A stretch of DNA of 64,000 bases, from positions 496,001 through 560,000 of the forward strand of contig JABVCE010000015.1 in the NCBI GenBank assembly GCA_014905635.1, given 5' to 3'. Of the stretch, positions 18,301-61,100 are shown in pieces. The position numbers and the translations under genes are program-made. Below the pieces are notes generated by a model, which was not told where the DNA came from, searched no databases, and saw only the letters and a list, made by a program, of their open reading frames with translations. The first letter of the stretch is position 1; each line of letters starts with the position of its first letter. The DNA is from Scenedesmus sp. PABB004. Its lineage: Eukaryota.

Positions 18301-21300
18301 GCCGCGCCGCGCGCCAGGGACCTTGGCCGCCGCGGCGCGGAAGCGCGCGACCGCCGCGAGCCGCGCCAGGCCCTCCGCCGCCGCCGTGAGCGCCGCGCCG
18401 GTGCAGCGCGGGCTCAGCAGCGCGCGCCGCGCCTTGGCGAGGTGTTGCAGCAGCTGCTGCGCGCTCGCCTCGCCCTGCGCCGCCGCGGCCTCGTCCGCCC
18501 ATTCGGCGGGCAGGCCGGCGCGCCGCCCGCCGCCGCCGCGCGCCGGCGCCGCCTTGGCGGGCGCGGCATCGAGCGGGAGCTCCGCCGGCGCGGCGTGCGC
18601 GAGCGACGTGCCGACCTGCTGCTGCAGCTGGTGCATGACCGCCAGCAGCGCCTGCTGCCGCAGGTGCGTGCGCTGCTGCGGCGACAGCGCCGCGCCGCCG
18701 CCGCCGCCGCCGCCCGCGCCGCCGCCGCCGGCGTCGCCGGCGCGGCTCGGCGGCGGGAGCAGCTGCTGCGAGTAGGGGTCTGACCTGGCCTGCTCGCCGC
18801 CCGGCGGGGCCGCGCCGCCGCCAGCCGCGGCGTCCGCCGCCGCGGCCGCAGCAGCCGCCTCGGCCGCCGCCTCCTCCTCGTGAAGCTCGTCCACGTCCAC
18901 CGCCGCGCCCACCGCGGCGGCGGCCGCGACCGCCGGCGCCCAGTGCCCCTGCAGCGCCCGCAGCGCCGCCCACACGCGCCACTGGTCGGCGGGCGTCAGC
19001 GCGCCGCGCGCGTGCAGCGCCGCCGCGCGCTCGAGCAGCGGCAGCGCCTGCTCGGGCGGCCAGAGCGGCGCGAGCGCGGGCAGCGCGCCCAGCATGTTGA
19101 CCACTTCGGCGGCCGAGAAGTCAACTGGCTCCACAGCCGCCGCGACCTCCACGCCGGGCTGCTGCTGCTGCTGCGGCTGCTGCTGCGGCTGCTGCTGCGG
19201 CTGCTGCTGCTGCGGCGGCGGCTGCTCCATGTGCAGCCCCGTGGCAGCCTCCAGCACCGGGTCTTCCTCAGCGGCGTCCGGCGCCGCCGCGGCCACGAGC
19301 GCCGCCGCCGGGAGCGGCACGCCGGCCACAGCCGCCGCCGGCGCGGCGTCGCCGCCGCCGCCGCCGCGCGGCTGCGCGCGCAGCCGCGCGCGCACCTCGC
19401 CCGCGAGCGCGAGCACGACGCGCTGCAGCGGCGGCAGCCGCGCCGCGGCCGCGACCGCCGCCGCAAGCTCGGCGTGGCTGAGGTCCACGAGCGCGCCGGG
19501 GCGGCCGAGACGGCGGTACCCGCGGCGCAGCCCGCCGCGCTGCCAGTGGGAGCTGAAGCCGAGGTGCGTCCACGCCGCCATCAGCTGCACGAGCCCCGGC
19601 AGGTGCGCGGCCGGCGCGACGGCGCCCGCGAGGCGCGCGAGCGCGCGCAGCAGCTCGCTGTCGCGCAGCGCGCCGCGCGGCAGGTGCGACGCGAGCTGCA
19701 GCAGCTGCAGCAGCGGGCGCAGCTCGGGCGCCGCCGCGTCGCCGCCGCCGCCGCCGCCGTCGACGCCGAGCGACATGCCCTCGGCGCCCAGGGCGTCGTC
19801 CAGGCTGCCGCCGTCGACACTGCCCACACCGGCGGCGGCAAAGGGCGCATAATCAAGCTCCAGCTGCTGCGCCGCAAAGCGCATCAGCGTCTCCACCGCC
19901 GCAGGCGCCGCGGCCGCGGCGGCGGGCGCCGCGGCGCCGCTGCCGTCCGGCGCCGCGTCGGCGTCGGCGCTGTCGCTGTCGCTGCCGCTGCTGCTGATCA
20001 GGCCCTCGCCCCCGCCGCTGATCAGGCCCTCGCCCCCGCCGCCCGGCGCGACGCCGACGGCGCCGGCGCTCCAGACGAGCGCGAGGCGCGGGCCCAGCGT
20101 GACCATCACCTGCAGCGTCCACGCCAGCGGCAAGCGCCGCCGCGCCGCGGCGAGGGCTACGAGCAGCTCACACGCGGCGGGCACCGGCAGCCGCACGCCC
20201 CACGCCGCGAGCCCGCACACGCACATCGCGACCGACAGCAGCTCAGCTGCCGCCGCGCGCTCCGGCGCCGGGCCGCCGGCCTGCTCCGCCGGCCCCGCCG
20301 CGAGCGCGCGCCACGCCTCGTGGATGTGGCGGCCGAGCTGGGCGGCCATGTACTTGACGGCCACGCCGCTGGGGCGCAGCCCGCACTGCTGGTGCGCCTG
20401 CACCGCCGCGAGCAGCTGCGCCGGCCGCCAGCCGAGCAGCTCCGCCTGCAGCGCGCCCTCGTGCGCCAGCCAGAAGTCGCGCGGTAGCTGCAGGCGCAGG
20501 AACGCGACCGCCGCGAGCAGCTGCTGCAGGAGCGGCAGGTACTCCGCGCCGCCGCCGCCGCCGCCGCCAAACGCGGGCCGCGCCGCGAGCGCCGCGAGCG
20601 CCGCCGCCTGCCAGGCCTGCAGCCACGGCTCCGGCGGCCGCACCCTGGCCGCCGACAGCGCGGAGAGCAGGCCGACCAGCTCGCCGTACGCGGCCGCCGC
20701 GGCCGCCCGTGCAGCCGCCGGCGCCTGGGGCTGCTGCTGCTGCTGCTGCTCCTGCTCCTGCTGCTCGCCGCGTGCGCGGCGGTGGCGCGCGGCGTGCGGC
20801 GCCTGGGGCTGCTGCGCCTGCTGCTGCTCCGGGTGGCCGGGCAGGGTGAGCGCCAGGTCGGCCATGCAGTGCCGCGCCGCCGCAAACCAGCGGCCCATCC
20901 ACGCGTCGTCCGGCGCGTCCGCGCCGAGCGTGCTCCACGCCAGCAGCAGGCCGCGCAGCTGCGCAGCGCTGCCGTGCGGCAGCGCGCGCCGCAGCAGCGG
21001 CGAGCGCAGCAGGCCCAGCAGGCGCGCGCGCGCGGCCTGCTGCTGCTCCAGCTGCGCCGCGTGCTGCTGCGTCGGGTCGAGCGCCGCCGCGCGCCAAGCC
21101 TGCCACTGCTGCTGCTGCCAGAGCGCGCGCGAGTGCGCCGCGAGCTGGCCGGACGCCCAGGCGAGCACGCCGAGCAGGTGCTGCAGCTCCTCTGCCGCCG
21201 CGGCGCCGCCGGGCCCGTCCGCGCCGGCCGCCGCCGGCGACGACGCGGCCACGTCCACGGCCGCCGCTGCGGCGGCGCAATAGTCCTGCAAGAACGCCAT

Positions 21301-21765
21301 GTCGCTGCAGTCGCCGCCGCCGCCGCCGCCGCGCGCCTGCGCCGCGTCGAGCAGCGTCGGCGGCGGCGCGCCCGCCGCCGCCTGCTCCTGCGCTGGCGGC
21401 GCCGCCTGGCAGCGGGCCAGGCACGCGGCGACGGCCGCCAGCTCGCGCAGCGAGAGCGTGCCCAGCAGCGGCGCGGCCGAGCGGCGCCACTGCTGGAGCT
21501 GCATGCCCGACGGCTGCGCGGCGCCGCACGCGCGCTGCAGCGCGTCCAGCAGCCGCCGCGCCTCGGACGCTGCCGCGCCCTCGCCCGCGGCGAGCGCCAG
21601 CGCGGCCGCGCCGCCGCCGTCCGCTGCTGCCGCCGCCGCGCCGACGCCGCGACGCTGGGCCCGCGGCCGCGCAGCGAGGCCGCATGGCCGGGCGCCGGTG
21701 CCGGGCCGCGCCCGGGGCCCCGCCAGGCCTCGGGCGCGCCCTGTGGGCGCGGCTGTCGACCTCAT
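15332..21765 (-). CDS. Very large Ala/Leu/Gln-rich helical-repeat protein, octotricopeptide-repeat (OPR)-like; one intron at about 17411-17580
   Basis: Two long ORFs joined at ...MTVAQ|VVQLQ. Recurrent degenerate motifs PDDAWMGRW, VRPPEPWLQAW, LRPDPPAARALL, LRPGPAWLAGAW resemble the OPR 'PPPEW' pattern. The start resembles a transit peptide. Confidence 0.6.
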
Positions 21766-22413
21766 GGTCTCGGCCTCGCGCCTCACCGCGATCTGGGGCC
21801 CCCCGCGGCCGTGCGGAGGGACGGCGGCGGCGGTGAGCGTCTCGGCGGCCTCAATGTGCCTGCCGTGGCGCAGGCAGCAGGCCAGGGCCCGCACCTCATC
21901 GTGTCGGTGGCGCTCGATCAGGCCTCCTGTGCTTCCGGGTGCGCTGGAGCGCTGGTGCGGAGGCCCGTGGGTCTGTGCGTGCGGCGCGGCGGCGCGAGCA
22001 GCGCACGGCGCAGGCGGCGGCACTGCGGCGCCGCTGCGCTGAAGCGCCCGCCGCCGCCGCCCGGGTCTCGCGCCCGCCGCGTCGCGCTCGACGTCTCCAG
22101 CTGCCGCCAGACCTCACACGCCGGTGCTGCGCCTGGGCCACCACAGGGCGCGCGGCAGCAGCGGCAGCAGCACCCGCTCTCGCTCGCCCTCGCGCGACAC
22201 ACAAAAAACCTCGGCCCGCTCCCATGGGCTAGAAGACGCTCAAACGAGTCAGCCAAAGCGCCCGAGCGCAGCAGGGGCGCGGCCGCGAGGGGCCGCGTTT
22301 CGACTCGTACCGCGCGGCCTGCGCGGCCCCGCAGGCCCTGCTGGGCGGGCGTGGCGGTCTGAACCTGCGCAGGACGCCGTTCCGAGCAGCGCCGCGGGCG
22401 GCGCGGGCGGCGT

Positions 22414-25400
22414 ATGAGCGCGGCGCCGCGCAGCGGCGGCGGCGCCGCGTCGCCGCCCGTCTCGGCGCGCCTGGCGGCGTACGTGGCGAATGAGGGCTAC
22501 TCCCCCACTGGGCGCGCCGCCGACGAGCGCGTGGCGGCGCGCCTCGCCGCGCGCACGGCCGGCGGCGGCAGCCCCGAGCCCGCCGGCGCCGGCACGGCTG
22601 CGCGCCCGCTGAGCGCGGCGGCTGCCGCGGCGGCGGTGCTGGGCCGCGCCGCCGGCGGCGCGCGCGGCAGGCCGGCAGACCCGGGCGCGGCGCGGCGCTC
22701 GTCCGGCGGCGGCGCGCGCCGCGGCTGGCGCGGCGCGGCGCCGGCGCCGGCGGCCGCGGCGCCGCCGCCGCCGCCCGCGCTGCGCAGCGCGCTCAAGGGC
22801 GGCCGCGCGAGCCGCTCGCCGTCGCCGCCGCCGCGCGGCGCGGCGGCGCGCGCCGCCGGCGGCCCCAGCCCGCGGCCGGCGAGCCCGCCGCCGGGCGGCG
22901 CCGCGGCCGGCGCCGCGTTTTTCCTCGCCGACGGCCTCGCGTTTTACGATGCCGACCGCCGGCTCTCCTCGGCCACGGCCTGCAGCGCCGCGAGCCTCGC
23001 ATCGGTGAGCCTCGACTCGTTCCTGCGCGCGGACGCGAGCCGCGGCCCGAGCGACGGCGGCCCGAGCCGGCGCGGCACCGCGGGCGGCGGGCGGCGCGGC
23101 GGGGTGGCCGAGGAGGAGGAGGAGGACGACGACGCGGCGGAGGAGCACGCGCGCCACGAGGCCGCGCAGCAGGCGGCGCTCGCGGCGTGGCGCGAGGCGG
23201 AGCAGGCGCGCCTCGCGCAGCGGCGCGAGGCCGAGGCGCGGCGCCAGGAGCTGCTCGCGGCGCTCAAGCGGCAGCAGCGCGAGCAGCTGCGCCGCGAGCA
23301 GGAGCGCCGCGAGCAGGAGCGCCGCGAGGCGGCGCAGCAGGAGCTGGCGCAGCGGGAGCTGGAGCACCAGCAGCAGCAGCAGGCGCTGGCCGAGCAGCAG
23401 GCGCTGGCCGAGCAGCTGGAGCTGGCGCGGGAGAAGCAGCAGCAGGCGGAGCTGGCGCGGCAGCAGGCAGAGCTGGCGCGGCAGGCGGAGCTGGCGCGGC
23501 AGCAGGCGGAGCTCGCGCAGCAGGCCGAGGCGGCGCGGCAGGCGGAGCTGCGCCGGCAGCGCGAGGCGGAGCTGCAGGCGCAGCACGCCGAGGCGCTGCA
23601 GGCGCAGCGCGAGGCGGCGCGGCGCGAGGCGGCGCGGCGGGAGGCGGAGCTGCAGGCGCAGCACGCGCAGGCGCTGCAGGCGCAGCGGGAGCAGCAGGAG
23701 CAGCTGCAGCGCCAGCAGCAGCAGCTGCTGCAGCGGCTCGAGCAGGAGCAGCAGCGAGCGTGCCGCGAGGAGCTCGCAGCCGCGACCGCGGCGGCCACCG
23801 CTGCCGCGGCCGCGGCCGAGGCGGCGGCGGCCGCGGCAGCGGCCACGGCCGCGGCCGCGCGGCAGGCCTCGCCGCGGCCGCCCGCTGCTGCGGCGCCCGC
23901 GGGGCTGCCGGTGGGCGAGGACAGCGGCGACGACGACCCCGGCGCGGCGGCGCACTGGATGAAGCACGAAGCGACCGGCAGCTGGCAGCGCATCGAGCTG
24001 CGCGCAGCGTCGCCGCAGGCGCAGCACGCCGCCGCGCGCAGCCCGCGCGGCGCGGCACTGCGGGGGCCCGGCCGCGACGCGCGGCTGAGCCTGCCGTGCG
24101 ACGAGCTGCTTGGGCACGCCCTGCCGGGCGGGCGCGCCAGCGCGGACGGCGGCGCGGCGACGCCGCGGACGCGGCAGTCGCTGCAGCAGCTGCAGCAGCT
24201 GCGCATGCAGCGCGTCGCGGCGCTGGCGTCACAGCGCCGGGTGGAGCAGCAGCTGCCGCTGGACGAGCAGCTGGATGAGCAGCCGTCGCTGCAGCCGCAG
24301 CAGCAGAACCCGCTGCACTGCGAGGCGGACGGCGCGGGCGGCGCGCTGCGCCTGGCCGACGCGCTCACCGGGGGCGGCGCCGCCGGCGCCAAGCGCCAGC
24401 ACAACCGCGCGCTCGCGGGCGGCAGCTGCAAGGCGGGGCGGGAGGACCAGCCCGCCAGCCCCGACAGCTGGCGCATCCCGTCGGCCGGCCTGGTGCTGCC
24501 GCGGCGCGGCACGGGCGCGAGCTGCCCCGGCGCCGCCCGCGTGCTGCACGTCGGCACGGGCGGGCACGGCGACGGCAAGAGCAACGGCGGCCTGGCGGCC
24601 ATCCTGGGCGGCCGGGGCAGCAGCCGGGGCGGCAAGGCGCCCGCCAGCGCCCACCCGCCGCCCGGCTCGGGCGACGGCGCGCCGCTGCTGCGCCGCGCCA
24701 GCATCGCGACCAGCGCCAGCGGCAGCAGCAGCGACGGCGGCCACCACCGCCACGCCGCCTCGTCGGCGCAGCTGCCGCACTGCGTGCGCGCCGGGCGCGC
24801 CGCCGGCGCCGCGCGGCGCAGCGGCTCGGCCGGGCGCGCCGCGCCGGGCGGGGCGCGCGAGGCGCTCAAGTCGGACGTGCGGGCGTTCTGGTCAAAGGCC
24901 CATAAGTGCAAGTGGGCGCTGTGCGTGGCGCTGCCGCTGCTGCTGGTCGTCGTGGTCGTCGGCGGCAGCCTCGGCGCGTGGGCGGGCGCGCGGGGCGGGC
25001 GCGGCGCGGCGCACGCGCCGGCGCCGACGCCGGTGGAGCAGCCGCTGGCCTTCCAGGCAGCCTTCTCGGTGCCCAGCCGCACCGGGCTTCAGGCCTGCTC
25101 GTCCTGGTTTGGAAGCCCCGAGGTGTGTGTCCCGCGCGGGCGCGGGCGCGCCCGGCGGAGGCCGCGCCTGCCGGGGCTGGCTGGCGTCCCGAGACCTCAC
25201 CGCCGCCGCGCCCGCCCGGCCGCCCGCCCCTCTCCGCCGCAGCGCGTGGACGCTTACAACAGGACCTTTTCAGGTTCCTATGCGGCCGCGCTGCACCTGC
25301 CGCCGGACGCGGTGCGTGTGAGCAGTGTCGCCTGCGGCGGCGCGGTGGTGGCCGGCGCTGGCGGCGGCGCCGGCGGCGGCGCCGGCGGCGGCGGCGGCGG

Positions 25401-27300
25401 CGGCGCGGGCGGCGGCGGCGGCGGCGGCGCGGGCGGCGGCGGCGAGGCGCGGCCCAGCCGGCACCTTCTGGCCGCCGGGCCGGCGCCGGGCGGCGGCGTG
25501 CTGCAGAGCATCCAGGCGGCCAGCGCCGCCGCGCTCGGCCCCGCGCCGCGCAGCGCGCCGCTGCAGGCGCCGCCCGTGCCGGCGGCGGTGGAGGTGGCCA
25601 CGCTGTTCACCCTCACGCCGGGCGGCGCCGCGGACGGCGCCGCGGACGGCGGCGGCAGCAGCGACGCCGGCGCGCTCACCGCGTCGGTCGAGGCCGACTC
25701 GGCCGCCATCCTGGGCGAGGCGATGCAGCGCTTCTTCGGCGCGCCGGTGGCGGGCGTGCGCGCGGCGGCGGCGCCGGCGGCGGGCGGGACGTGGGGCCCG
25801 ACGGGCCCCGCGCCGCCGGCGCCCGCGCCGCCGCCGTCGCCGGCGCCCAAGCCGCCGGCGCAGCCGGCGGCTGGCGGCGGCGGCGGCTGGGCGCCGGACA
25901 GCGGCGTCGAGTGGCCCGCCACGTGGCCGCCGGCCGCGCCGGCCAAGAAGCCGGCGCCGGCGCCGGCCAAGCCGGCGGCCAAGCCGGCGCCCGCCAAGGC
26001 CAAGCCGGCGGCGCCGGCCAAGCCCGCGGCGGCGCCGGTGCTGGTAGCGCCGGCGGGTGACGCGCAGCAGTTGACTAACATCTGGCTCAGCTGGCAGGCG
26101 CACACCAGCCAGGCGGCCGACCCGTACGGGCAGCCGCCGCCACTGCAGGAGCAGCAGGAGCAGGAGCAGCAGCAGCAGGAGCAGCAGGGGGAGTCGCTGG
26201 CGGGCGGCGGGCTGGAGGTGCCGGGCGCGGCGGACGCGCTCGCGGCGGCGGCGCAGCCGCACGCGGCGCAGCTGCGCGTCGCGGCGCCGGCGCCGGCGCC
26301 GGCGCCGGCAAAGCCCAAGGCGGCGGCACCGGCAAAGCCGGCCCAGCAGCAGGCCAAGCTGGTGGTGGCGCAGGCGCAGCCCATGCTCGCGGCACCGCAA
26401 GAGCAGGCCCAGCCGGCGCCGCAGCAGCAGCCGAAACCGGCGCAGCCAAAGCCGGCGCAGCCAGCGGCGGCGCTGGCCGCACCGGCGCCGCACCAGGCGC
26501 TGCACCAGCAGGCGGGCGCGGCGTACGTCCCGGCCGTGGCGGGGCAGCTGCTCGCGCCGCAGGCCGCGCTGCCGGACGCGGGCGGCGCCACGGGGCGCGA
26601 GTTTGTGTCAGACCTCGCCGCGGTCACGGCGGCGCCCCTCGCCAGCGACGCCGCCGGCGCCGGGGGCCCGCCCTCGGACGAGGAGCCGCTGCCGGCCGAG
26701 TTCCCGGCGCAGCTGCTCGACCCTGCGCTTTACGACAGCGCGCCGAGCTGCACCTACGCGCCCACGAGTGCCAACAGCCTCTCCGACTCGCAGGGCCGGC
26801 TGTGGGGGTGGATGCGCGGCACCAGCTGCCTCTTCCGCGCCGCGCCGGCGCCGCCGGGCGGCGCGGCGCCGCGCGGCGGCGTGTCGTGGGCGGCCGCGGC
26901 CGACTGCGCCGGCGCGCCCGACGGCGCGAGCGCGGTGCACGACGAGGACGGGCAGCTCTGGGGCTGGCAGCGCGGCACGAGCTGCGCGTTCCGCGGCGTC
27001 ACCCTCGACGAGCTGCGCGCGCGCGGCGGCGGCCTGCCGGTCGAGCGCATGCCGATGCTCTGGGAGGCTGCGCCGCGCTGCGCCGCGGCGCCGAGCATCG
27101 ACAACGCGCTGCCCGACACCTTTGGCCGATACTGGGGCGTGGAGGGCGCCGTGACGTGCGCGTTCAAGGTGCGCGGGGGGGCACGCCGAGGTGCACACAC
27201 GCGCGGCCGCGGCAGGCGCGGCGCGGCCGGCGGCGCGCAGCGCGCGCTGACGCGACGGCGCTCTGCCCCCGCCCCGGCGCCCCAGGGACTGGAGGCTTGA
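22414..27300 (+). CDS. Single-pass membrane protein: N-terminal E/Q/R coiled coil, TM helix, Pro/Ala-rich stalk, three C-terminal Cys/Trp repeats (CBM10/dockerin-like)
   Basis: 1628-aa ORF with two in-frame GT-AG introns (25123-25242, 27169-27285). TM segment WALCVALPLLLVVVVVGGSLGAW. Three repeats of C..AP......D..G..WG.....C.F[RK]. Confidence 0.7.
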   Translation: MSAAPRSGGGAASPPVSARLAAYVANEGYSPTGRAADERVAARLAARTAGGGSPEPAGAGTAARPLSAAAAAAAVLGRAAGGARGRPADPGAARRSSGGGARRGWRGAAPAPAAAAPPPPPALRSALKGGRASRSPSPPPRGAAARAAGGPSPRPASPPPGGAAAGAAFFLADGLAFYDADRRLSSATACSAASLASVSLDSFLRADASRGPSDGGPSRRGTAGGGRRGGVAEEEEEDDDAAEEHARHEAAQQAALAAWREAEQARLAQRREAEARRQELLAALKRQQREQLRREQERREQERREAAQQELAQRELEHQQQQQALAEQQALAEQLELAREKQQQAELARQQAELARQAELARQQAELAQQAEAARQAELRRQREAELQAQHAEALQAQREAARREAARREAELQAQHAQALQAQREQQEQLQRQQQQLLQRLEQEQQRACREELAAATAAATAAAAAAEAAAAAAAATAAAARQASPRPPAAAAPAGLPVGEDSGDDDPGAAAHWMKHEATGSWQRIELRAASPQAQHAAARSPRGAALRGPGRDARLSLPCDELLGHALPGGRASADGGAATPRTRQSLQQLQQLRMQRVAALASQRRVEQQLPLDEQLDEQPSLQPQQQNPLHCEADGAGGALRLADALTGGGAAGAKRQHNRALAGGSCKAGREDQPASPDSWRIPSAGLVLPRRGTGASCPGAARVLHVGTGGHGDGKSNGGLAAILGGRGSSRGGKAPASAHPPPGSGDGAPLLRRASIATSASGSSSDGGHHRHAASSAQLPHCVRAGRAAGAARRSGSAGRAAPGGAREALKSDVRAFWSKAHKCKWALCVALPLLLVVVVVGGSLGAWAGARGGRGAAHAPAPTPVEQPLAFQAAFSVPSRTGLQACSSWFGSPEVCVPRGRGRARRRPRLPGLAGVPRPHRRRARPAARPSPPQRVDAYNRTFSGSYAAALHLPPDAVRVSSVACGGAVVAGAGGGAGGGAGGGGGGGAGGGGGGGAGGGGEARPSRHLLAAGPAPGGGVLQSIQAASAAALGPAPRSAPLQAPPVPAAVEVATLFTLTPGGAADGAADGGGSSDAGALTASVEADSAAILGEAMQRFFGAPVAGVRAAAAPAAGGTWGPTGPAPPAPAPPPSPAPKPPAQPAAGGGGGWAPDSGVEWPATWPPAAPAKKPAPAPAKPAAKPAPAKAKPAAPAKPAAAPVLVAPAGDAQQLTNIWLSWQAHTSQAADPYGQPPPLQEQQEQEQQQQEQQGESLAGGGLEVPGAADALAAAAQPHAAQLRVAAPAPAPAPAKPKAAAPAKPAQQQAKLVVAQAQPMLAAPQEQAQPAPQQQPKPAQPKPAQPAAALAAPAPHQALHQQAGAAYVPAVAGQLLAPQAALPDAGGATGREFVSDLAAVTAAPLASDAAGAGGPPSDEEPLPAEFPAQLLDPALYDSAPSCTYAPTSANSLSDSQGRLWGWMRGTSCLFRAAPAPPGGAAPRGGVSWAAAADCAGAPDGASAVHDEDGQLWGWQRGTSCAFRGVTLDELRARGGGLPVERMPMLWEAAPRCAAAPSIDNALPDTFGRYWGVEGAVTCAFKVRGGARRGAHTRGRGRRGAAGGAQRALTRRRSAPAPAPQGLEA

Positions 27301-37304: not shown

Positions 37305-37869
37305 AAGTTGCGCCAGCGTTGCTGGCGCAACTTCAGCATCGCCTTGTGCTGCGCCGCGTGCTCGAACCGCCTCGACCTGCTCTGCCGCCGGAGCTCCAGA
37401 GGCAGATCGAGGCAGGCCGCGAGCACGGGGGCGCGTGCCGGTCGCCGTTGGGCGAGGGGCCCCGCTGCACGCGGGCGCGTCCCGCGCCGGCGGCCCCCCG
37501 CGCCGGCGGCCCCCACGCGCGCCCCGGCGCCAACGACGCCGCCGTCGGCCTCGGCGCCGCGCCGCAGCGCCGACCGCGTCGTCGTGCGCGGCCCACAGGC
37601 GCCCACGGCGCTGGAGAGCGAGCACGACGACGCGGTCGGCGCTGCGGCACAGCGCTGCGCCGCCGCGCGGAGCGGGCCGGCGGCACGCGCGTCAGCAGCA
37701 CCGCAGGCGCGCCCCGGCGGCGAGAGCTCGCGCGCGCCCGCGGCACGGGATGTGAGACGCCGCCGCCGCCGCCCCCGCGATGGCGCCCACGGCCGCGCCC
37801 AGCACGTTGCGCCGCTGCGGCCGCGTCAGGGCGACGATGACGGCACAAGGCGGTCGCAGCGGCGCAACG
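37305..37869. repeat. Intergenic cluster of inverted repeats between TIMELESS and eIF4A
   Basis: Stems at 37305-37333 (13 bp perfect), about 37351-37435 (interrupted), 37561-37648 (27 bp perfect) and 37805-37869 (20 bp with one G-U). Confidence 0.8.
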
Positions 37870-38505
37870 GGCTGGCTGCGGCGCCGTCGCAGCTCCTCCG
37901 CGGTCCGAGCCGGGCAACCGGCAGGCGGCAGCGGCGGCGAGGCAGCGTGCAGGCGGCCCACGCGTGCGCGCCACGGCGGCGAGTCGAGTCAGTTTCGCGA
38001 AAGCTCAAGACGATCAAGCGCAACTCGAGCCGCCGCAGTCGCTTTTGACGATGCGGCGCACCTGCTGCCGCGCGCGCACGCGCGCGCGCGGTAGCAGCGG
38101 CGAGCGGCGGCGGCGACGCCCTGCGCGCGTGGGCGCGCCCCGGTGGCGCACGGCACCCCCGGCCTGCCGCCAGCGCGCCAGCGCGCCCCCAGCCCAGGCT
38201 GCGGCCGCGCGCTGCGGCCTCGGGCGCGCCCGCCACGCGCTGCCTGCCGGGCGCGGCGCAGCCGGCCGCACGCGCTCGCACGGAGCGCGTCGGCGGCGCG
38301 CGCGTCTCTGGGGAACGCCGGCGCGCGGCGTGGGCGCAGCGCGGCGAGTTTGGCTTAAACCCACGCGATGGCAGCGCCGCGCGCCCTTCGCGGCGGCGCG
38401 CGCCGCGCCCGGCCTCTTTCGCTGGTCTTGCACCAGTGAACGCCGCTCCCACCGCGCCCCTGCTCACCCCCTCGCGAGGCGGCCGCCTCTGAACAGCTCG
38501 CAAAC

Positions 38506-41500
38506 ATGACCACCGAGACCGCCTACGATGCCAAGGCCTACGATGACAAGATGAAGGAGTAGTGCGTGGCGCCGCGCGCCGCCCCCGGGGCGCCGGCGGC
38601 GCCGCGCGGCGCGTGGGCGGGCGCCGCTGATGGGCCGCCCCTCGCGCGCGCGCCGCCCCGCCCGCAGCATGGGCGCCGCCAAGGGCGAGGGCGGCGAGAC
38701 CTTCTTCACCGAGTGGGAGGAGACCTTCGAGTCGTTCGACCAGATGGGCCTGCACGAGAACCTGCTGCGCGGCATCTACGCCTACGGTGCGCCGCGCCCC
38801 CGCGCCGCGCCGCGCCCCCGCCACGCGCGCCGCGCAGCCGGGACGCGCCCGCCACCGGCGGCGGGGCGCTGGCGGCGGCGGGGCGCGACGGCGGCGGCCG
38901 CCGGCCGGCGGCGCGCGCGGAGCAGCGGCGGCCGCCGGCCGGCGGCGCGCGCGGAGCAGCGGCGGCGCCGGCGGCCGCCGGCGCGCGGCCGCCGCCGGGC
39001 GCCGTCTCGCCGGCGCCGCCGGCGCCGCCAGTTGGCGACTGCGCCGGAGCGCGCACATGCACGCATGCGCGCACGCACGCGAGCCGGCCGGCCGGCACGG
39101 CCCGGGCCGACCCGCGGCCGCCCTCGCCGCCCGACGCCCTCGCCGCCGCCGCCGCGGCGCCCCCCAGGTTTCGAGAAGCCCTCCGCGATCCAGCAGAAGG
39201 GCATCGTGCCCTTCACCAAGGGCCTCGACGTCATCCAGCAGGCGCAGTCGGGGACGGGCAAGACCGCGACGTTCTGCGCGGGCATCCTGAACAACCTCGA
39301 CTACAACCTGCTCGACTGCCAGGCGCTCGTGCTCGCGCCGACGCGCGAGCTCGCGCAGCAGATCGAGAAGGTCATGCGCGCGCTCGGCGACTACCTGCAG
39401 GTGCGGCGCGCGGCGCGGGGACGCGGCGGGGAGGCGGGGAGGCGGCGGCGCGGGCGCGGGCGCGGCGAGGCGGTGGCGGGTGCTGCAGGCAGCAGCGGGG
39501 AGGAGCGGGCAGGGAGTGGGCCGCGGCGGCGGCGGGCAGCGGCGAGGAGCGGTAGCGAGCAGGAGGAGGCAGCGCCGGCAGCGCGCGGCGGCGGCACCTG
39601 GTGTTTGGTCTGGTGCCATGCCATGACGTTGGTCTCGACCTGGCCCGCACCATCGGCATGGCACCAGACCAAACACCTGGGACCCACCTCGCCAGCGGCC
39701 AGCGGCAGCCGAGGGCGCGCAGCCGCTGGGCTGCGCAGCAGTCGCCGGGGCGCGCAGCAGCCGCCGGCGGCCCGCGCCGTCCTCGCGCGCCGCCTGGCCG
39801 CCCGCCCACGACACCCGCCCGGCCGCGCCGCGCCCGCGCGCAGGTCAAGTGCCACGCGTGCGTCGGCGGCACGAGCGTGCGCGAGGACGCGCGCATCCTC
39901 TCGTCCGGCGTGCACGTCGTCGTCGGCACGCCCGGCCGCGTGTTTGACATGCTCCGCCGCCGCTGCCTGCGCGCCGACTCGATCAAGATGTTCACGCTCG
40001 ACGAGGCCGACGAGATGCTCTCGCGCGGTGCGCGGCGCTGCGGCGCTGACGCGGCGGCGCGGGGGCGCGGCGTGCCGGGGGCGCGCGGGGTGCAGCCCGG
40101 CGTGCGGCGCGCGGCGCGCGGCGCGGCCTGGCCCGCTGCTGGCCCTCGAACCGCTGGCCCCTGACCCGCGGCGCCCCGGCCGCACCTCGCGCCCCAGGCT
40201 TCAAGGACCAGATCTACGACATCTTCCAGCTGCTGCCGCCCAAGCTCCAGGTGGGCGTGTTCTCCGCCACGCTGCCCCCGGAGGCGCTGGAGATCACGCG
40301 CAAGTTCATGAACAAGCCGGTGCGTTCAAAAACCGCGTGTTCGAACGGGCCGGGGGCGCCGGCCGGGTTTGAATGCGACCAGCGGCAGCGGGTCTGCGGC
40401 GGGAGCGGCGGCGGCAGCGGCGGCAGGCAGGCTCCCCCTCGCTCCCGCCCGCGCCGCCGCGCCGCGCCGCGCGGCGCCGCGCCCACGCCGCCCGCCGCGC
40501 CCGCGCCGCTCTCGCGCGCGCGCCCAGGTGCGCATTCTGGTGAAGCGCGACGAGCTCACGCTGGAGGGCATCAAGCAGTTCTACGTGAACGTCGAGAAGG
40601 AGGACTGGAAGCTCGACACGCTCTGCGACCTCTACGAGACGCTCGCGATTACGCAGTCGGTCATCTTTGCCAACACGCGCCGCAAGGTGCGCGCGCGGTG
40701 GCTTTGGGCGGTTTGATGAGTTTTGAATTTCGAACTCGATCGACAGACGGGGCGGGGCGGGCTGCGGGAGGGGCTCGCCGCGTGGCGGGGGGCGGCCGCG
40801 GCGGCTGCGGCGCACGCACGCGCCGCCCGCCCGTGTGCCCCGCGCACTCCGCCGACTACTCCGCCCCGCCGCGCCCGCCCCAGGTCGACTGGCTGACCGA
40901 CAAGATGCGCGAGCGCGACCACACCGTGTCGGCGACGCACGGCGACATGGACCAGAACACGCGCGACGTCATCATGCGCGAGTTCCGCTCCGGCTCCTCC
41001 CGCGTGCTCATCACGACCGACCTGCTCGCGCGCGGCATCGACGTGCAGCAGGCGCGCATGCGCATGCGCGCGCGCCTGGCCCACGCGCCGCCGCCGCGCG
41101 CCGCCGGCGCCGCGCGCGGGTGGTGTGAGGAGGGCGGCCCGCGGCGCGCGCGCGCGCCGCAGCTCGAATCCAAATTTCAAATTTCTGACGCCCCCGCCCC
41201 GCCGCCGCGCGCCGCACCACCCCCGCCGCGCGCACAGGTCTCCCTGGTCATTAACTACGACCTGCCCACGCAGCCCGAGAACTACCTGCACCGCATCGGC
41301 CGCTCCGGGCGCTTCGGGCGCAAGGGCGTGGCGATCAACTTTGTCACGCGCGACGACGAGCGCATGCTGCAGGACATCCAGCGCTTCTACAACACGGGTG
41401 CGTGCGCGGCCGCAGCGGCGTTGTTTTTTGTTGGTGCTTTCGTTCGTTGCTTTTGCCTTTGTTTTGTGTCGACGCGTCCCGTGCGACGCCGCCGCGCGGG

Positions 41501-54400: not shown

Positions 54401-55100
54401 CGCCGCCGGAACCGGCGGCGCTCCCGTCGCGCAGCGCGCGTATGGCCGCCGCGGTCGCGTCGCGCGTCGCCGCGGGCGCGAGCAGCACCCAGCAGTCCAC
54501 GGGCAGCTGCTCCTGGAAGCTCAGGCCCACCGCCGCCGCGGCGGCCGCGACGCGGCTCAGCGTCGCGACCGAGAGCGCGCCGGCGTCGCCGGTCGCCGCG
54601 GCGACCGCGCCGCCGCCCTGCTGCGCCGCGCAGGCCTCGGGGCTGAGCTTGGCGAGCACGCGGGGCGCGCGCTCAGCGGCGGCCGCGCCTGCGGGCGGTG
54701 GCGGTGGCGGGCGGCGGGGGCGGGCGGTGGCGGGCGGGCAATCAGCAGCAGCGGTGACCGCCCCGGTGAGGCGGCGCGGCGCGGTCCCGCCGCGCGGCCA
54801 ACGCCCTCAGGCGGCTCCGCTGCGTTCCCGAGTTCCGCGGGCGCGCGCCGGAGGCCCCCGGGGGCCTGGCTGGCGCCGCACAACATCTGTGCAACTTCAT
54901 GGTGCACCTCCCGCCGGACAAACGCCCCGCGAGCCCGCCCACGGTGGCGCTGAGCGGCCAGGACGCACGCCCACGCAGCCGGCGGGGCGCGCGCGGCCCC
55001 AGCGCGCGGCCCCGGGTCCCTTCCGGCCCTCACCGGCAGCAGCGACGGCGGCGGCCAGCGCCAGCGCCAGGGGCAGCAGCGCCCGGCTGCTTCGAGCCAT
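51424..55100 (-). CDS. Secreted subtilisin-like serine protease (S8) with Cys-rich C-terminal modules, multi-exon
   Basis: Signal peptide MARSSRALLPLALALAAAVAAA; IWGIKRI; catalytic motifs VIDDGVD, NHGTH|VFGTIAG, INLSLG, VVAAGNG, T|GTSQATPHVTG; EGF-like Cys pattern near the C-terminus. Confidence 0.88.
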
Positions 55101-55272
55101 GGCGAGCGTGGGGGAGCGGCTGGCGCGCTGGCGCCGCTGCCGATACACTCTTGGCAGCGCGAGCGCGGTGCTGTTGTGCCGCGCTGAGCCTGTTCCTGGA
55201 CGTCCACACACCGCAGCGCACACTGGACGGGGCGCCGGCCGGGCCGGGGGCGTGCTGTGTGAGCCTGGGACA

Positions 55273-55314
55273 GCCCAGCGCCGACTGCCCAGCGCCGACT
55301 GCCCAGCGCCGACT
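55273..55314. repeat. 14-bp tandem repeat GCCCAGCGCCGACT (3 copies) upstream of the subtilisin start
   Basis: Read directly. Confidence 0.8.
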
Positions 55315-55564
55315 CACGCCGCCGCGCCCGGACGCGCTGCGCCACACAGCGATACTCACGGACGCGGCGATCGCATGGTCGAACGCGGCGCGGGGCGCTG
55401 CGGCCGCGGACCTGCTGACCATTGCCCCGGGGTGACGAATTCCGTTTGAACGCGCCCAGCTCGCGTTGCGGCCCCGACTGCGCCTCGGTCACACTGCAGA
55501 GGCGCCGCGGCGGGCCGCGGCGGCCGCGGGCGGCGGCGCGCGCGCGAGCGCTCCAGGCGCCGCG

Positions 55565-55786
55565 CTGCTCAGCTTGCCTCGGCGGCCGCGGCGACAGCGG
55601 GCAGCACGCCCGCCTGCGCCAGCAGCTCCGCGGCTCGCCCGCTCGCCATGAGCGCCGCGGTGTCGTCGCCGCCGCCGACGAAGCGGCCGCCGATGAAGAC
55701 GCGCGGCACCGTGCGCGCGCCGGTGAGCGCGCCGAGCGCGTCCTGCAGCGCCGGCGCGCCGAGCGGCCCGCGCGCGTCGGCCGGCG
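55565..55786 (-). repeat. 222-bp direct duplicate of 58108-58329 (C-terminal half of the glutaredoxin domain, no active site)
   Basis: Aligned by eye with three substitutions; encodes ...LQDALGALTGARTVPRVFIGGRFVGGGDD...EAS*. Confidence 0.9.
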
Positions 55787-56416
55787 GCGGGGCAGGGCGG
55801 CGGCGGGGCGGGGCGGCCGCTGCGGCGGGGCGTCAGGCGGCGGGGCGGGTCCCGCGTCGCCGCGCCGCGCCGCGTCGCTGTTCCTGCTGCTGTCGCCGCC
55901 GCCCGCGTGCGTGCCAGCGCGCTCGCCTCGCGGCCGTTGGAGAGCTGGTCGACGCATGGCCGTCACGTGACCGTGCACGTCGACAAGCTGAGCAACGGCC
56001 GCAAGGCGAGCGCGCTGGGACCCCCGAGGCCCGGCACCACCTCGTGTCGGCCGGCCGGCGCGGGCGCGCTCGCCCCGCCGCCGCCGTCCCGCCGCTGCCG
56101 CCGCCACGCCCGCGCGCCTTGCCCGGCAGCGCCACGACGAGGGAGTGCTCATCGTAGTGCTGCTGGCCAAGGTGCGCGGGTCGGCCTCGCGGTCGGCGGC
56201 CGGGGGCCAAGAACGGGCCCGCCGTCGCGCCCTCCCGCACCATCGGCGCGTCCCGGGTGTGCCGGCACACCCGCAGGGCCTGATGGTGCAGTGGAGGGCG
56301 CGCACGCAACCCCAGCGTCACCCCAACACCCCCGGCCTCGCGCCGCCGCGCCGCCGCACGCATGCACATGCACATGCACATGGCCGGCCAGGTGTGTGCA
56401 CAGAGCCGTCACAGTT

Positions 56417-57616
56417 CGCCGGCGGGTCGCACGCGTGCTGAACGCTGCCCGCGCAGCCAAGCTTGCGCAGGAAGTGTTCAGCACGCGTGCTGCCCGCGGG
56501 CGTCCTTGCGCGGGGCGGTGCCGCGCGAGGCGCGGCGCAAGGCCCGGGTGCGGCCGGCCCCGCGCGGCGAGCCCAGGCCGGCGGCGGCTGCCCGCCCGAC
56601 CACCGACGACACACGCGCTCGGCCAGGCGGTCCAGGCTGCTGCACTTGAGCACACGTCGTCATACTCGTGTCCAAGCTTGGCCACTCGCATGTGGAGACG
56701 TGTGCTCCAGTGCAGCAGCCTGGACGCTGCCTTGGCCATGCAGTGCAGTGGTATCAAAAGCCGCCGAGAGGGCCAGGCCACCGCCTGCGCGTGCGTGTGC
56801 GTGTGCGCAGGAGCGGGCAGGAGGGGCAGGCGGGCGCCGCGCGCGCGTCGCGCCGCACGTGCACGTGCGCTGCACGCTCGCCTGCGCCGCGCGCTGCCGA
56901 GCGCAGCGCACCGCCTGGACCGCGCCGCGGCAGTCCCAGACTCGCCACAGGGCAGCCCGAGCTGCAGGCCGCCCGTCGCCCCGGCCGTCGGCGCCGCGCG
57001 GGATGGGCTGGTGCCCCTGGCTGAGGCGCCTGGGGCAACAGCCCATCGCGCGCGGCGCCGTCACCCAGCCATGGCGCGCAGACCTGCGGCTCTGCGTGCG
57101 CCGCGCGCGCGCGCACATGCCGCCGCCCGCCGGGCCGCCTGGTCGCTTGCAGCGACCTCCGCCCGCGCGCGCGCGCGAGCGCCGCCTGGCGTGGCGCGGC
57201 GCGCGCGCGCGCGAGCCCTCACCGCGCTGCCGAGGTCGGCGTGGATCGCGGGCCCATGGCTGGACTCCATGCAGACGGACACAAGACCCCAGCCGACCTC
57301 GGCAGCGCGGCGGATCATGCTGCGGGGCGCGCCGTCCAAGGTGTTGGCAGCGCTGAGCCCGGCGCTCTGCCCCGGCCGCCGGCGCCGCGCGCGATGGGCT
57401 GGTGCCCCAGGCCGCAGCCGAGGCAATCAGCCATCGCGCGCGGTGCCGTCGCCCCCCGGCCGAGGCTGCACACATTGGGCGGTTTGGGGCGAGCGAGCGG
57501 CCTGGGCCGTGCCCGGAGCAGCCGACGTGGCGTGGCGGCACTCGCACGCGTGGTGCAGCTGGCCCGTGGCAAAGCAATCGTATTTCAAACACGTGATTTG
57601 CCAACCACGGCCAGCT
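56417..57616. ncRNA. Cluster of about six long stem-loops (candidate miRNA precursors)
   Basis: Inverted repeats at 56417-56502, 56621-56737, 56989-57060, 57222-57310, 57380-57448 and 57557-57616. The hairpins are seen directly; RNA function is inferred. Confidence 0.5.
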
Positions 57617-58080
57617 CCTGCGCGGCGGCGGCAGCCGGCGGCGGCGCGCGCGCGTGCGCGGGCGTCAGCGCGCGAAGCAGCAGCAGCAGCAGCGCGCAGG
57701 CGGCGCGCCGCCCCGCCGCGCCGGCCCGCCCCGGGCGGCTGTGGCAGGCCGCCCGCCGGCGCCCAGGTGGTGCGCCCGGCCCCGGCCCGTGCCGCCGCGG
57801 CCTGCGCCGCCGCGGGGCCGCGCCGCGCCCGCGTGCGCGCGGCGCTGCTGCCCCGGCGCGGCGTGCTCGCCGATCGCCCGCATGCGCGCCCGCCGGGTCG
57901 CAGCGCACGTCCCTGGTCACGCCAACGCACCTTCGGCGCGCAGCGCAGGGCTGGGCGCGTCGCGGGATGGCGGGCGCGACGCGGGGCGGCAGCAACAGAC
58001 CCAGCAGCGGGCCGGGCCCACACCGCAGCAGCGAGGGGCGCAGCTGCTGGGCGCTCGGCCTGTTAGCGCAGCCCAGCCAG

Positions 58081-58085
58081 TTACA
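58081..58085 (-). promoter_or_regulatory. UGUAA polyadenylation signal
   Basis: TTACA on + (TGTAA on -), about 27 nt downstream of the stop at 58112. Confidence 0.55.
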
Positions 58086-58111
58086 CAGCGCATTGCTCGA
58101 GCGCTCCCTGC

Positions 58112-61100
58112 TCAGCTTGCCTCGGCGGCCGCGGCGACAGCGGGCAGCACGCCCGCCTGCGCCAGCAGCTCCGCGGCTCGCCCGCTCGCCACGAGCGCCG
58201 CGGTGTCGTCGCCGCCGCCGACGAAGCGGCCGCCGATGAAGACACGCGGCACCGTGCGCGCGCCGGTGAGCGCGCCGAGCGCGTCCTGCAGCGCCGGCGC
58301 GCCGAGCGGCCCGCGCGCGTCCGCCGGCGCGAGCGCGCCCGACGCGCCGCCGGGCTGGCCCAGCTGGTCCAGCTCGACGACCGACAGCGCGCCCAGACGG
58401 CCGGCCGGGCGCAGCACCGACGCGAGCGCGTCCTTGGCCTTGAGCGAATAAGGGCAGTAGGTCTTGCTGAACACCACCAGCGGCCGCGCCGCGACCAGGC
58501 CCGCCACCCAGCGCGCCGCGCGCTCAGCCTCCGACGCTTCGTCCTGCTCCTGCTCCTGCACCTGCTGCTGCTGCTCCTGCTGCTGCTGCTCCTGCTCCTG
58601 CTGCTCCTGATACTGCTGCTCCTGCTCCTGCTGCTCCTGATACTGCTGCTGCTCCTGCTGCTGCGCCTGCGCTGTGCCGGGCGGCAGGTCCACGTAGCTC
58701 ACATAGTCCCCCGCCAGGTTGCCTGCGCGCAGCGGCGGCGGCGGGCGGCGGGCGGTGGGCCCCGGCGCCGCGGGCGGTGGTGTGCCCCGCCGCGCGCGCC
58801 CGGCCCGCGCGGCCGCTGCGCGGCGCGGCGCGCACCGAGGAAGAGACGGCCGCCGTGCTCCAGCGCGGCGGACACGGTCGACACGTGCGTGCCGTCGGGG
58901 TCCATCAGCCAGTCGAGCACGCGGCCGCTGCCGCCGTCGACCTGCGCGGCGCGGCGCGGCGCGCTCGGACCGCGCGCGGCGCGCTCGGCGCGCGCCCGCC
59001 CGCCCGGCCGCCGCCGCGGGCGCGTCGCCGCGCGCTGCGCGTCGCCGCACCTTGGCGACCGCGCCCCACTTTTTGAGCGGCGGGCGCGCCCAGTCGGGCA
59101 GCCACGCGTACACCGCGCGCACGGCGGGGTCGCGCAGCAGGCGCGCGATCGGCGGCACGGGCGACACGAGCGCGACCCAGAACGCGCCGTCCGGCGCCGC
59201 GCTCACGCCGTCGGGCGGGCCCGGCAGGCGCTCGAGCAGCGGCTCGTGGGTCCCCGCCTGCGGTCAGCAGCGCGGTGCGGGCACGCTGAGCTCGGCGGCG
59301 CGCCGAGCCCGGCGCGCGCGCGGCGCGCAGCGCCGACGCGCGCCGCCACGGCCGCCGCTGCGGGCGCAGCCGCGGGCGCAGCCGCCGCTGCCGCGCCTTG
59401 GGCCCGGTGAGCCAGAATTTGAGCAGGCGGATGCGGTCCGTCTCCGCGAGCACCAGGTAGCTCTCGTCCGCCGCGAGCGCGACGCCGTTGGCGTAGTAAA
59501 ACCCCTGCGCGGCGGCCGCGGCGCGGTCCGGCGGGCGCCGCGCGTGCTTTCAGGGAGGGCCGCAGGAGGAGGCGTCCGGGCAGCAGGGTTGGCGGCGGCG
59601 CGGCGCAGGGGCGTGCGCGGCGGCGTGCGCGTTCTCAGGCCGGCCCGGCGGAGGCGGCGAGCGCAAGCGGGCGGGCGGGCGCACCTTGGCCAGCACCGCC
59701 GTCTCGCCCGTGGCGGGGTCGTACCGCAGCAGTCGGCCGCGCGGCAGGCCCTGCGCGCGGCAGGGGCGCGCCGACGGCGGCGGCGGCGTCAGGAGAGCGC
59801 TGCGGCGGCCGGTGCGCCCCCGCGCACGCCGCTGCACCCCGCGACCCCGCTCGCCGCGTGCCTGCGCGAGGCCGAGCATCCACGCGCGGAAGGTGTCTCG
59901 GTACCCGCCGGGCGCCAGGCTGGGCGCGATGTCGGTGCAGGCGGTGAAGTAGACGCGGCCGTCAGAGGCGACCGCGAGGTCGTTTGCATACACGATCGGC
60001 GTGCTGCGCAGCGGAGATGCGAGCGCGGGCGCAGGCGCGGACGTGTGGGCGGCGCGCGTGCGGGCAGAGGGGCCGCGCGGCGGCACGGCGGCGGCGGCGG
60101 CGGTCGCGGCGGCGGCGGGCGCAGCAGCGGCGGCCGCGGCGGCGGCGCGCACCCCGGGTCGATGGGCGACGAGGCGCTCACGCGGTCGGCGAGCACCGTG
60201 GTGGAGTTGTCGGCGTAGCTGTACTTCACGAGGCCCTGGCGCGCGGGCGCGGCGGAGCACGGGCGAGCGGGGCGGCAAGTTAGGCAGGAGGGCGGGAGGC
60301 GCGCTAAGCCCGCGCCCGCTGCTTGCTGCGCGCGCGGGCGCCGCCGCACCGCGTTGGAGTCGCAGACGAGCAGGTCGCCGGCGGCGTCAAAGTGATACCC
60401 GAGCGGGCGCCCGCCGCCGAGCGCCGCGCGCGGCCGCGGCGCGAGATCGTAGCCGCCGCCGCCCGGCGCGCGCGCCGCCTCCAGCAGGCGGCCGTAGCGG
60501 TCCAGCAGCGCGAGGCCGCCGCCCGGCGCGACGGCGACCGACTCTGCGCGGCGGCGGCGGTGCGGCGTGGGCGTGGGCGCGGCGGGGGCGGCTGGCTGTG
60601 CGGCCGCTGCGGGCGCCATTGCGAGCACCGCCGCCGGGGGTGCCCACGCACCAGCGCCGAGCACGCGGCCCTCAAACAGCCGCACGGCGTCTCGCAGCCG
60701 CGTGTTGGGCGCAAAGGGGCCCTGCAAGTGGGCCGGCGCGGCGGCGCGGGCGGCGTCAGCGGCCCGCGGCGGGCTGGCTGGAGGCGGCGGCGGCGTCGCC
60801 CGCCGCTGCGTCGGCCCCCCTCCAGGCCGCCCACCTCTAGCGGCGCCGGCCGCCACGGCAGCACGTCCTCGCTGACCACGTGGACGTAGTGGCCGTGCGC
60901 CGGCGCCGGCAGCGGCACGCGCAGCTGGCCTGCGCGGGCGCGGCGCGGCGAGCAGCGGCGGCAGCGCTCGGTCCCGCGCCGCCGCCCCGGCGCGCCCCAG
61001 GGCGCTCCGCTGCGCGGCGCGACCGGCTGGCAGGACGTTCCCGGAGCTGGGGGGCTGCTGAAATCGTGGTGCCCAGCCGCCAGGCCTCGGTTTGTTGGGC

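Follow-up and report, generated by a model that had tools for sequence, protein, structure and literature searches.

Densely Spaced Short Inverted Repeats in a Non-coding Spacer of Scenedesmus sp. PABB004, a Candidate Source of Hairpin Small RNAs

Introduction

Miniature inverted-repeat transposable elements (MITEs) and foldback elements, including the microRNA (miRNA) genes derived from MITEs, are short units that consist almost wholly of two inverted arms. Young plant MIR genes and animal hairpin RNA (hpRNA) loci that arose from inverted duplications have long, almost perfect arms, imprecise processing that resembles the production of small interfering RNAs (siRNAs), and rapid turnover. Here we describe a cluster of short hairpins in a 64,000-nt stretch of DNA from Scenedesmus sp. 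PABB004 (GenBank assembly GCA_014905635.1, contig JABVCE010000015.1, positions 496,001 to 560,000 of the forward strand). This whole stretch is referred to as the window, and all coordinates are given within it. The cluster comprises at least eight hairpins, labeled H0, H0b and H1 to H6, which we tentatively read as young inverted duplications made at the level of DNA and as possible precursors of small RNAs.

The closest described small-RNA precursors are the DCL3-dependent (DCL, Dicer-like) hairpins of Chlamydomonas reinhardtii, which are presented by Valli et al. (2016; PMC4817775) as near-perfect, lineage-specific stem-loops in or near coding genes, features that recur here. According to the same account, many miRNA and siRNA hairpins of this alga lie in introns and untranslated regions (UTRs), and DCL3 cleaves mRNAs that carry hairpins in their 3′ UTR. 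A further study states that such miRNAs are not conserved even within the Volvocales, and its introduction holds the idea that hairpin RNA genes are born from inverted duplications (PMC5511227). The locus described here is similar in position, given that the cluster is found a short distance downstream of a coding gene and that another hairpin of the window (hairpin D, below) is intronic in an eIF4A-type gene. It differs in belonging to another eukaryote, with ~80% GC, and in having eight distinct hairpins side by side.

Template-switch hairpins are a second close match. As characterized by Monttinen et al. (2023; PMC10710096), these are near-perfect inverted repeats of unique sequence without target-site duplications, as seen here; a single event is enough to create one, and most remain raw material without a function. 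Contrary to what is predicted for copies made in place, however, the hairpins of the cluster have a GC content below that of the local DNA. The likeness to MITEs and foldback elements is that one unit, shared by H3 and H5, is present in two copies, whereas clear target-site duplications and common termini were not seen by eye in the flanks, and a multi-copy family was not found in the window or in collections that seemingly do not include this organism. Young MIR and hpRNA loci share with the cluster the long, almost perfect arms, but the arms here lack extended similarity to genes of the window, and the only gene-fragment copy nearby, from a glutaredoxin gene, is direct and not inverted. Multi-hairpin miRNA clusters of algae were not described in the literature that surfaced in our search, which covered titles and the openings of abstracts. 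Both hairpin small-RNA precursors and palindromes from inverted duplication or template switching are known kinds of element, and the locus is at best a new example in an unusual genome.

Results and Discussion

At Least Eight Discrete Hairpins Lie in One Non-coding Spacer

An initial annotation of this DNA had described about six pre-miRNA-like fold-backs (H1 to H6) within 1.2 kb, without a credible coding sequence, and had proposed that they form a lineage-specific miRNA cluster transcribed from the plus strand. All six fold-backs were recovered in place. The cluster is, however, larger than annotated: with H0 and H0b added, at least eight hairpins lie within 1.7 kb (55.9–57.6 kb). They make up eight of the 12 complex hairpins that we compiled from the window. 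The cluster is located in a ~3-kb non-coding spacer between two minus-strand genes, bounded by the stop of a glutaredoxin gene (58112) and the point where the next gene probably starts (55100); it lies 0.8–2.5 kb upstream of this probable start.

H1 to H5, together with H0 and H0b, are real and discrete structures that go far beyond chance. Minimum free energies (MFEs) were compared with those of 300 dinucleotide shuffles per hairpin, and for H1 to H5 no shuffle reached the observed energy (z −6.4 to −10.2). In the case of H6, the observed value of −24.2 was bettered by at least one shuffle (minimum −24.8). These z-scores are inflated by selection, because the coordinates were picked by eye. 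We therefore rely also on an unbiased scan of all 64 kb without gaps, which detected 18 hairpins with a score of at least 16, whereas 12 block-wise dinucleotide shuffles contained 0.58 on average and never more than two; five of the 18 fall within 55914–57310. When the region 55791–58085 was tiled with 49 segments of 90 nt, the median z was 0.05 and four tiles were below −3. Structure is thus restricted to individual, discrete hairpins, and the stretch as a whole does not share it.

Each hairpin is a near-perfect palindrome of 60–127 nt with its own sequence, and the centers of neighboring cluster hairpins are 148–347 nt apart. H0 (55903..56029; z −8.0) has 52-nt arms that are 83% complementary, with GTCACGTGAC at its apex, and forms the center of a larger imperfect palindrome of ~325 nt (55806..56130; ~71% over ~346 aligned nt). 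H0b (56109..56180) is a 72-nt hairpin with an MFE of −57.6 and a z-score of −7.9. H1 (56417..56502; z −8.6) contains the 15-bp perfect core, GCACGCGTGCTGAAC, that had been pointed out before, and carries CCAAGCTTG at its apex. The 29-nt stem with one mismatch noted in H2 (56621..56737; GC 0.64; z −10.2) is likewise present, with 28 of 29 positions paired between the arms 56630–56658 and 56697–56725 (score of 26 in the ungapped scan) and an apex that includes CCAAGCTTGG. The H3 unit (56978..57066) holds a hairpin at 56989–57060 (z −9.8) with 33-nt arms that are 91% complementary, and is a paralog of the H5 unit (57369..57454). The H5 hairpin (57380–57448; z −7.0) is gapped, and the inner 3′ arm of this copy is decayed. 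H4 (57222..57310; z −6.4) had been credited with a 19-bp perfect stem plus an inner stem: the former is found at its base (57222–57240 with 57292–57310), whereas the inner stem is weak on the plus strand and better on the minus strand (−56.3 versus −66.0). H6 (57557..57616; GC 0.53; z −3.7) is a weak hairpin. All stems include A and T, as the initial annotation had stressed, with 4–14 A-U pairs per hairpin. A low-complexity palindromic stretch rich in CG dinucleotides (57098..57216) was left out of the hairpin set.

The absence of a credible coding sequence was borne out too, in that codon periodicity is lacking across 56300–57600 and the six long open reading frames (ORFs) over the cluster match no Pfam family. 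One plus-strand frame of 779 codons (55727–58066) was considered as a hidden protein gene and rejected; its translation is Arg/Ala-rich nonsense without a Pfam match.

The Hairpins Are Largely Unrelated and Poorer in GC Than Their Surroundings

Among the 12 hairpins, a single pair out of 66 (H3/H5) is related. The unit that they have in common consists of the hairpin and ~10 nt to either side; the wider flanks cannot be aligned, and the copies are 391 nt apart. The 3′ arm of H3 (57028–57060) is 97% complementary over 33 nt to the 5′ arm of H5, and it is these arms that enclose H4, while the changes between the copies sit in the outer two arms. For H0, H1 and H2, shared ancestry beyond the apex motif was not significant (H1–H2, p 0.065; H0–H1, p 0.155; 200 shuffles each). 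The motif CCAAGCTTG was found only at the apexes of H1 and H2 (three matches at two sites, versus 0.34 expected in the window), and two of the three AAGCTT sites of the window are located at these same apexes. The apexes of H0, H1 and H2 are self-complementary, which argues for inverted duplication at the DNA level.

Inspection by eye revealed no clear target-site duplication in the flanks of 11 hairpins. H5 is ambiguous, with a possible direct repeat, CCCCGGCCG, on both of its sides in a GC-rich context. Neither were termini common to the hairpins seen by eye in the printed flanks, and the arms have no extended similarity to any gene of the window. The cluster hairpins have a mean GC content of 0.72, compared with 0.81 in the spacers between them, and the introns of the eIF4A-type gene of the window range from 0.86 to 0.92. 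In a genome with introns of such composition, hairpin islands of lower GC argue for constraint or youth, as opposed to old neutral DNA. Their retention of A and T where non-coding DNA is pushed to about 0.9 GC also speaks for an RNA role.

Folding Is Balanced Between the Strands

Transcription from the plus strand, as proposed in the initial annotation, is not supported by the folds. Energies are split four to four: H0b, H1, H3 and H5 fold better on the plus strand by 1.4–2.3 kcal/mol, and for H0, H2, H4 and H6 it is the minus-strand fold that is the more stable, by 1.5–9.7 kcal/mol. Over the whole 1.2 kb the MFE is −824.8 kcal/mol on the plus strand and −851.3 kcal/mol on the minus strand, so the latter is favored by 26.5 kcal/mol; both global folds retain all six hairpins H1 to H6. 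The two genes that border the spacer also lie on the minus strand. The argument that mismatches form G-U pairs on the plus strand is valid for H1 and H5 by themselves but does not extend to the hairpin set.

The plant-type criteria of miRScore, as set out in PMC12594335, allow at most five mismatched positions and no asymmetric bulge of more than 3 nt in the miRNA/miRNA* duplex, and at the level of reads they ask for a 20–24-nt miRNA and miRNA* with a 2-nt 3′ overhang, at least 10 exact reads and at least 75% precision. We applied the duplex limits (≤5 mismatched positions, no asymmetric bulge >3 nt) to 21-nt windows on the predicted folds, and seven of the eight cluster hairpins passed on the plus strand and all eight on the minus strand. 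H6 accounts for the difference, with no passing window on the plus strand and a pass on the minus strand only. The predicted hairpin shape fits precursors of miRNAs or hairpin-derived siRNAs.

A search of the 64-kb window against Rfam 15 returned no match at the gathering score. Below threshold, H1 and H2 gave nine matches to eight models, seven of them miRNA models, at 20–39 bits compared with thresholds of 42–168. Since these matches are spread over unrelated models, they reflect generic scoring of hairpins. A selenocysteine insertion sequence (SECIS) element was considered because the upstream gene encodes a redox protein of the thioredoxin fold, and was rejected: there is no match at E ≤ 1 in 55000–58600, and the glutaredoxin frame lacks an internal stop. 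Potential targets were sought by comparing 21-mers from all hairpin arms with the window at up to three mismatches. The 49 word matches collapse to 16 distinct site pairs, half of which (8/16) are H3 against H5, and the remainder are isolated sites with three mismatches, which we judged, without a shuffle control, to be at chance level.

Putative Young Inverted Duplications as a Possible Small-RNA Source

We favor, with a probability of roughly 0.4, the reading that the cluster consists of young DNA-level inverted duplications that may be a source of hairpin small RNAs or sites of DCL cleavage if they are transcribed, with the strand left open. The hairpins would have arisen as local inverted duplications in DNA. 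Such an origin is suggested by the lack of a consistent strand bias and of clear target-site duplications, by the unique arms and palindromic apexes, and by the other scars of rearrangement in the spacer, namely an ectopic 222-nt copy of a gene fragment, the ~325-nt outer palindrome and a microsatellite. The H3 unit would later have been copied 391 nt away, giving H5. Any transcript that crosses the hairpins, on either strand, would present near-perfect stems of 19–45 bp, the type of substrate used by Dicer-like enzymes. Transcription from the minus strand may be at least as likely as from the plus strand, with the cluster included in read-through RNA or a long 3′ end from the glutaredoxin gene, or else in the leader of the next gene. 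The cluster could then act as a young, lineage-specific source of hairpin-derived siRNAs or proto-miRNAs and/or as a group of DCL cleavage sites downstream of a gene, a placement that, by analogy, fits the UTR and intron hairpins cut by DCL3 in Chlamydomonas. We consider it unlikely that the locus goes further than this, with eight Dicer-type hairpins on one transcript downstream of the glutaredoxin gene, A/U-containing stems kept by selection against GC drive, and cleavage that links the amount of small RNA to how stable the host mRNA is.

Several points weigh against a small-RNA role for these duplications. The alignment of H3 and H5, read by eye, contains at least six changes, all of which weaken pairing, one of them by yielding a G-U pair on the plus strand, and no compensatory change was seen in it; the pattern therefore resembles neutral decay. 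Apexes that are self-complementary are typical of events in DNA, not of RNA loops under selection. Furthermore, some non-coding islands of low GC in the window are not hairpins, so the argument from composition is only moderate. The window-wide count of 18 hairpins against 0.58 expected points to a general mutational process. Finally, more than 6,000 template-switch hairpins in primates are reported to have given rise to 18 miRNA genes (PMC10710096), which makes the base rate low for any one hairpin.

Much of this evidence would also suit neutral DNA palindromes, left behind where replication switched templates or breaks were repaired in a spacer prone to rearrangement; their folding would be incidental and without a role in RNA. 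This is the main alternative, albeit one that we find doubtful. Strand-symmetric folding, the palindromic apexes of H0, H1 and H2, the lack of clear target-site duplications by eye and the disruptive H3/H5 differences are all in line with it, as are the 222-nt fragment copy, outer palindrome and microsatellite of the spacer and the excess of inverted repeats across the window. Template switching is, moreover, described as making whole hairpins in one step, most of which never become genes (PMC10710096). However, a copy made in place should keep the local GC content of ~0.85–0.9, whereas several hairpins are at 0.53–0.74, and eight hairpins in 1.7 kb require a local cause. Even palindromes of neutral origin, if transcribed where a Dicer-like enzyme is present, would be cut on account of their long stems. 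Another reading is a nest of MITE or foldback-type elements piled up in a gene-poor spacer, given that each hairpin is a discrete unit with GC below that of its surroundings, that the H3 unit was copied alone, without its wider flanks, and that the possible direct repeat CCCCGGCCG surrounds H5. We regard such a nest as improbable. The flanks of the 11 hairpins inspected by eye show no clear target-site duplication, and with no common termini and one related pair in 66, eight different families would have to be nested. Outside the window, a 19-mer shared by H3 and H5 matched 33 metagenome loci, on contigs of 0.47–0.75 GC; these are chance matches, and none of the 33 carries the hairpin. A 24-mer of H2 had no match among genome contigs and none among viral contigs, in collections that seemingly do not include this organism. 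The duplications could, lastly, be an artefact of assembly, since the 222-nt repeat, 99% identical and 2.5 kb away, could mark a mis-join. This we consider extremely unlikely: assemblers do not make fold-backs of 60–127 nt with unique arms, and a 238-nt contig from a freshwater metagenome is identical to 57387–57624, which covers part of H5, the adjoining spacer and all of H6, although this run may relate to the source sample.

The true plus-strand miRNA polycistron of the initial annotation, in which at least six precisely processed pre-miRNAs share one primary transcript, is compatible with the hairpin sizes and the 148–347-nt spacing of their centers, which are like those of miRNA clusters, and with the duplex limits, which the predicted folds mostly respect. 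The preference of H1, H3, H5 and H0b for the plus strand and the paralogy of H3 and H5, reminiscent of tandem MIR family members, would agree with it as well. Yet the other four hairpins and the whole stretch fold better on the minus strand, the latter by 26.5 kcal/mol, H6 has no acceptable duplex on the plus strand, both neighboring genes are on the minus strand, and Rfam matches are absent at the gathering score and generic below it, so that we rate this proposal as rather improbable. Still less probable, in our view, is a cis-acting structure that yields no small RNAs, be it a cruciform or palindromic protein-binding DNA in the promoter region of the next gene or a set of RNA stems that contribute to ending transcription of the glutaredoxin gene. 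The cluster does lie between genes on the same strand and 0.8–2.5 kb upstream of the probable next start, palindromes with an ACGT core occur in H0, H1, H2 and H6, and two other hairpins (B and C, below) lie 0.6–0.95 kb upstream of the eIF4A start. On the other side, arms of 40 bp far exceed protein-binding sites in length, chance should produce CACGTG in DNA of this composition (a rough estimate is ~16 per window), and no mechanism based on such hairpin arrays is known to us from green-lineage algae.

If small RNAs are made from the inverted duplications, the cluster would represent a compact small-RNA locus with multiple hairpins, of a kind not described so far for such a lineage and base composition, and a natural case in which to study how A/U-containing stems persist in a genome of 80% GC. 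If they are not, it is a clear example of how dense short inverted duplications can become in one intergenic spacer, and such duplications are considered the starting material of new hairpin RNA genes. As it stands, the locus is a candidate source of small RNAs.

A Fragment of the Glutaredoxin Gene Is Duplicated Beside the Cluster

The upstream neighbor of the spacer on the minus strand is a coding stretch for a glutaredoxin domain (58112..58520, minus strand; CPYS ... TVPRVFIGGRFVGGGDD; stop codon at 58112–58114), with a Pfam Glutaredoxin match of 2.5e-10 and strong codon periodicity. The last ~73 codons of this gene and its stop are present a second time at 55565..55786 on the minus strand, as a 222-nt copy that is 99% identical to 58108–58329. 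The copy is in direct orientation, 2543 nt from the gene, and lacks the part with the CPYS active site; an in-frame stop is located just upstream. Duplication is confined to the 222-nt piece, and the sequences around it at the two sites are unrelated to each other. The fragment resembles a pseudo-exon or an ectopic duplicate and could have originated as filler in ectopic repair, by capture of a gene fragment or by mis-assembly. The microsatellite of the spacer is a (CATGCA)n repeat of 3.7 copies (56361..56382).

The minus-strand frame that holds the glutaredoxin domain extends over 58112–59263 and comprises an intron-like Arg/Ala segment, a long Gln/Glu-rich linker and the glutaredoxin domain with its CPYS site. 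It also includes a putative strictosidine-synthase-like stretch with no Pfam match, and may represent a fused two-domain gene. A TGTAA poly(A) signal 27 nt past the glutaredoxin stop was considered and set aside, as there are three in the whole window, about the number expected by chance. On the far side of the spacer, a minus-strand gene probably begins at 55100, to judge from an ATG at 55098..55100 that is followed by a signal-peptide-like MARSSRALLPLALALAAAVAAAG and then a GT donor. Further down this gene there is a weak subtilase match, below the Pfam cut-off.

Genomic Context and Other Hairpins of the Window

The window has a GC content of ~80% (0.71–0.83 per 2 kb) and, judging from its sequence features, is eukaryotic DNA with GT-AG introns. 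Its composition is far from that of Chlamydomonas or Volvox, and it is not obviously from either. Genes recognized with Pfam include an eIF4A-type DEAD-box gene (DEAD, Helicase_C) on the plus strand that is interrupted by GT-AG introns, a Rab1-type GTPase, a cyclophilin, a GH9 glycosyl hydrolase and a DUF4200 protein. In sequence, eIF4A and Rab1 resemble their counterparts in the green lineage. No DCL or Argonaute (AGO) domain is found among the Pfam matches of the window, for which part of the ORFs were scanned. Two very long frames, 16948–22113 (minus strand, 1722 codons) and 22363–27297 (plus strand, 1645 codons), have coding-like GC at third codon positions and no Pfam match.

Four complex hairpins lie outside the cluster. 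The strongest in the window, A7146 (7136–7248; z −12.0), has a ~45-bp stem and a GC content of 0.63, with flanks of 0.91 and 0.81, and is located ~1.3 kb upstream of the Rab1-type gene. Of 22 positions in one of its arms, 19 agree with the Rab1 coding sequence at 5476–5497; the similarity stops there and probably arose by chance. Hairpins B (37544–37665; z −8.1) and C (37782–37885; z −4.6) are upstream of the eIF4A start codon, by 0.6–0.95 kb. Hairpin D (39590–39690; z −8.3), in an eIF4A intron, has a perfect stem of 23 bp that can be extended to ~35 bp and a GC content of 0.64, compared with 0.86 in its flanks. Because its host gene is probably highly expressed, hairpin D is the best single candidate for an intron-derived small-RNA hairpin. 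With A7146, B, C and D present, hairpins recur in the non-coding DNA of this genome, and the cluster is a local hotspot.

When genome contigs were searched with the Rab1 protein, no relative of this organism was found; the search returned one plant-like contig of 393 bp and two archaeal GTPases. The plant-like contig has 96% protein identity to the Rab1 of the window and a much lower GC content; it is very small, has low coverage, belongs to a bacterial assembly and probably represents contamination. Two freshwater-metagenome DNA runs share 0.07 and 0.06 of the sampled words with the stretch. At 80% likeness their matches are mostly short and partial and come from other organisms, and a few short contigs are identical (57387–57624, as mentioned above, and 58102–58252).

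Lastly, an island with a GC content of 0.47 is located at 8761–8870 and contains several AACCTCTG-like units and a small palindrome (cctctgtttaacagagg).

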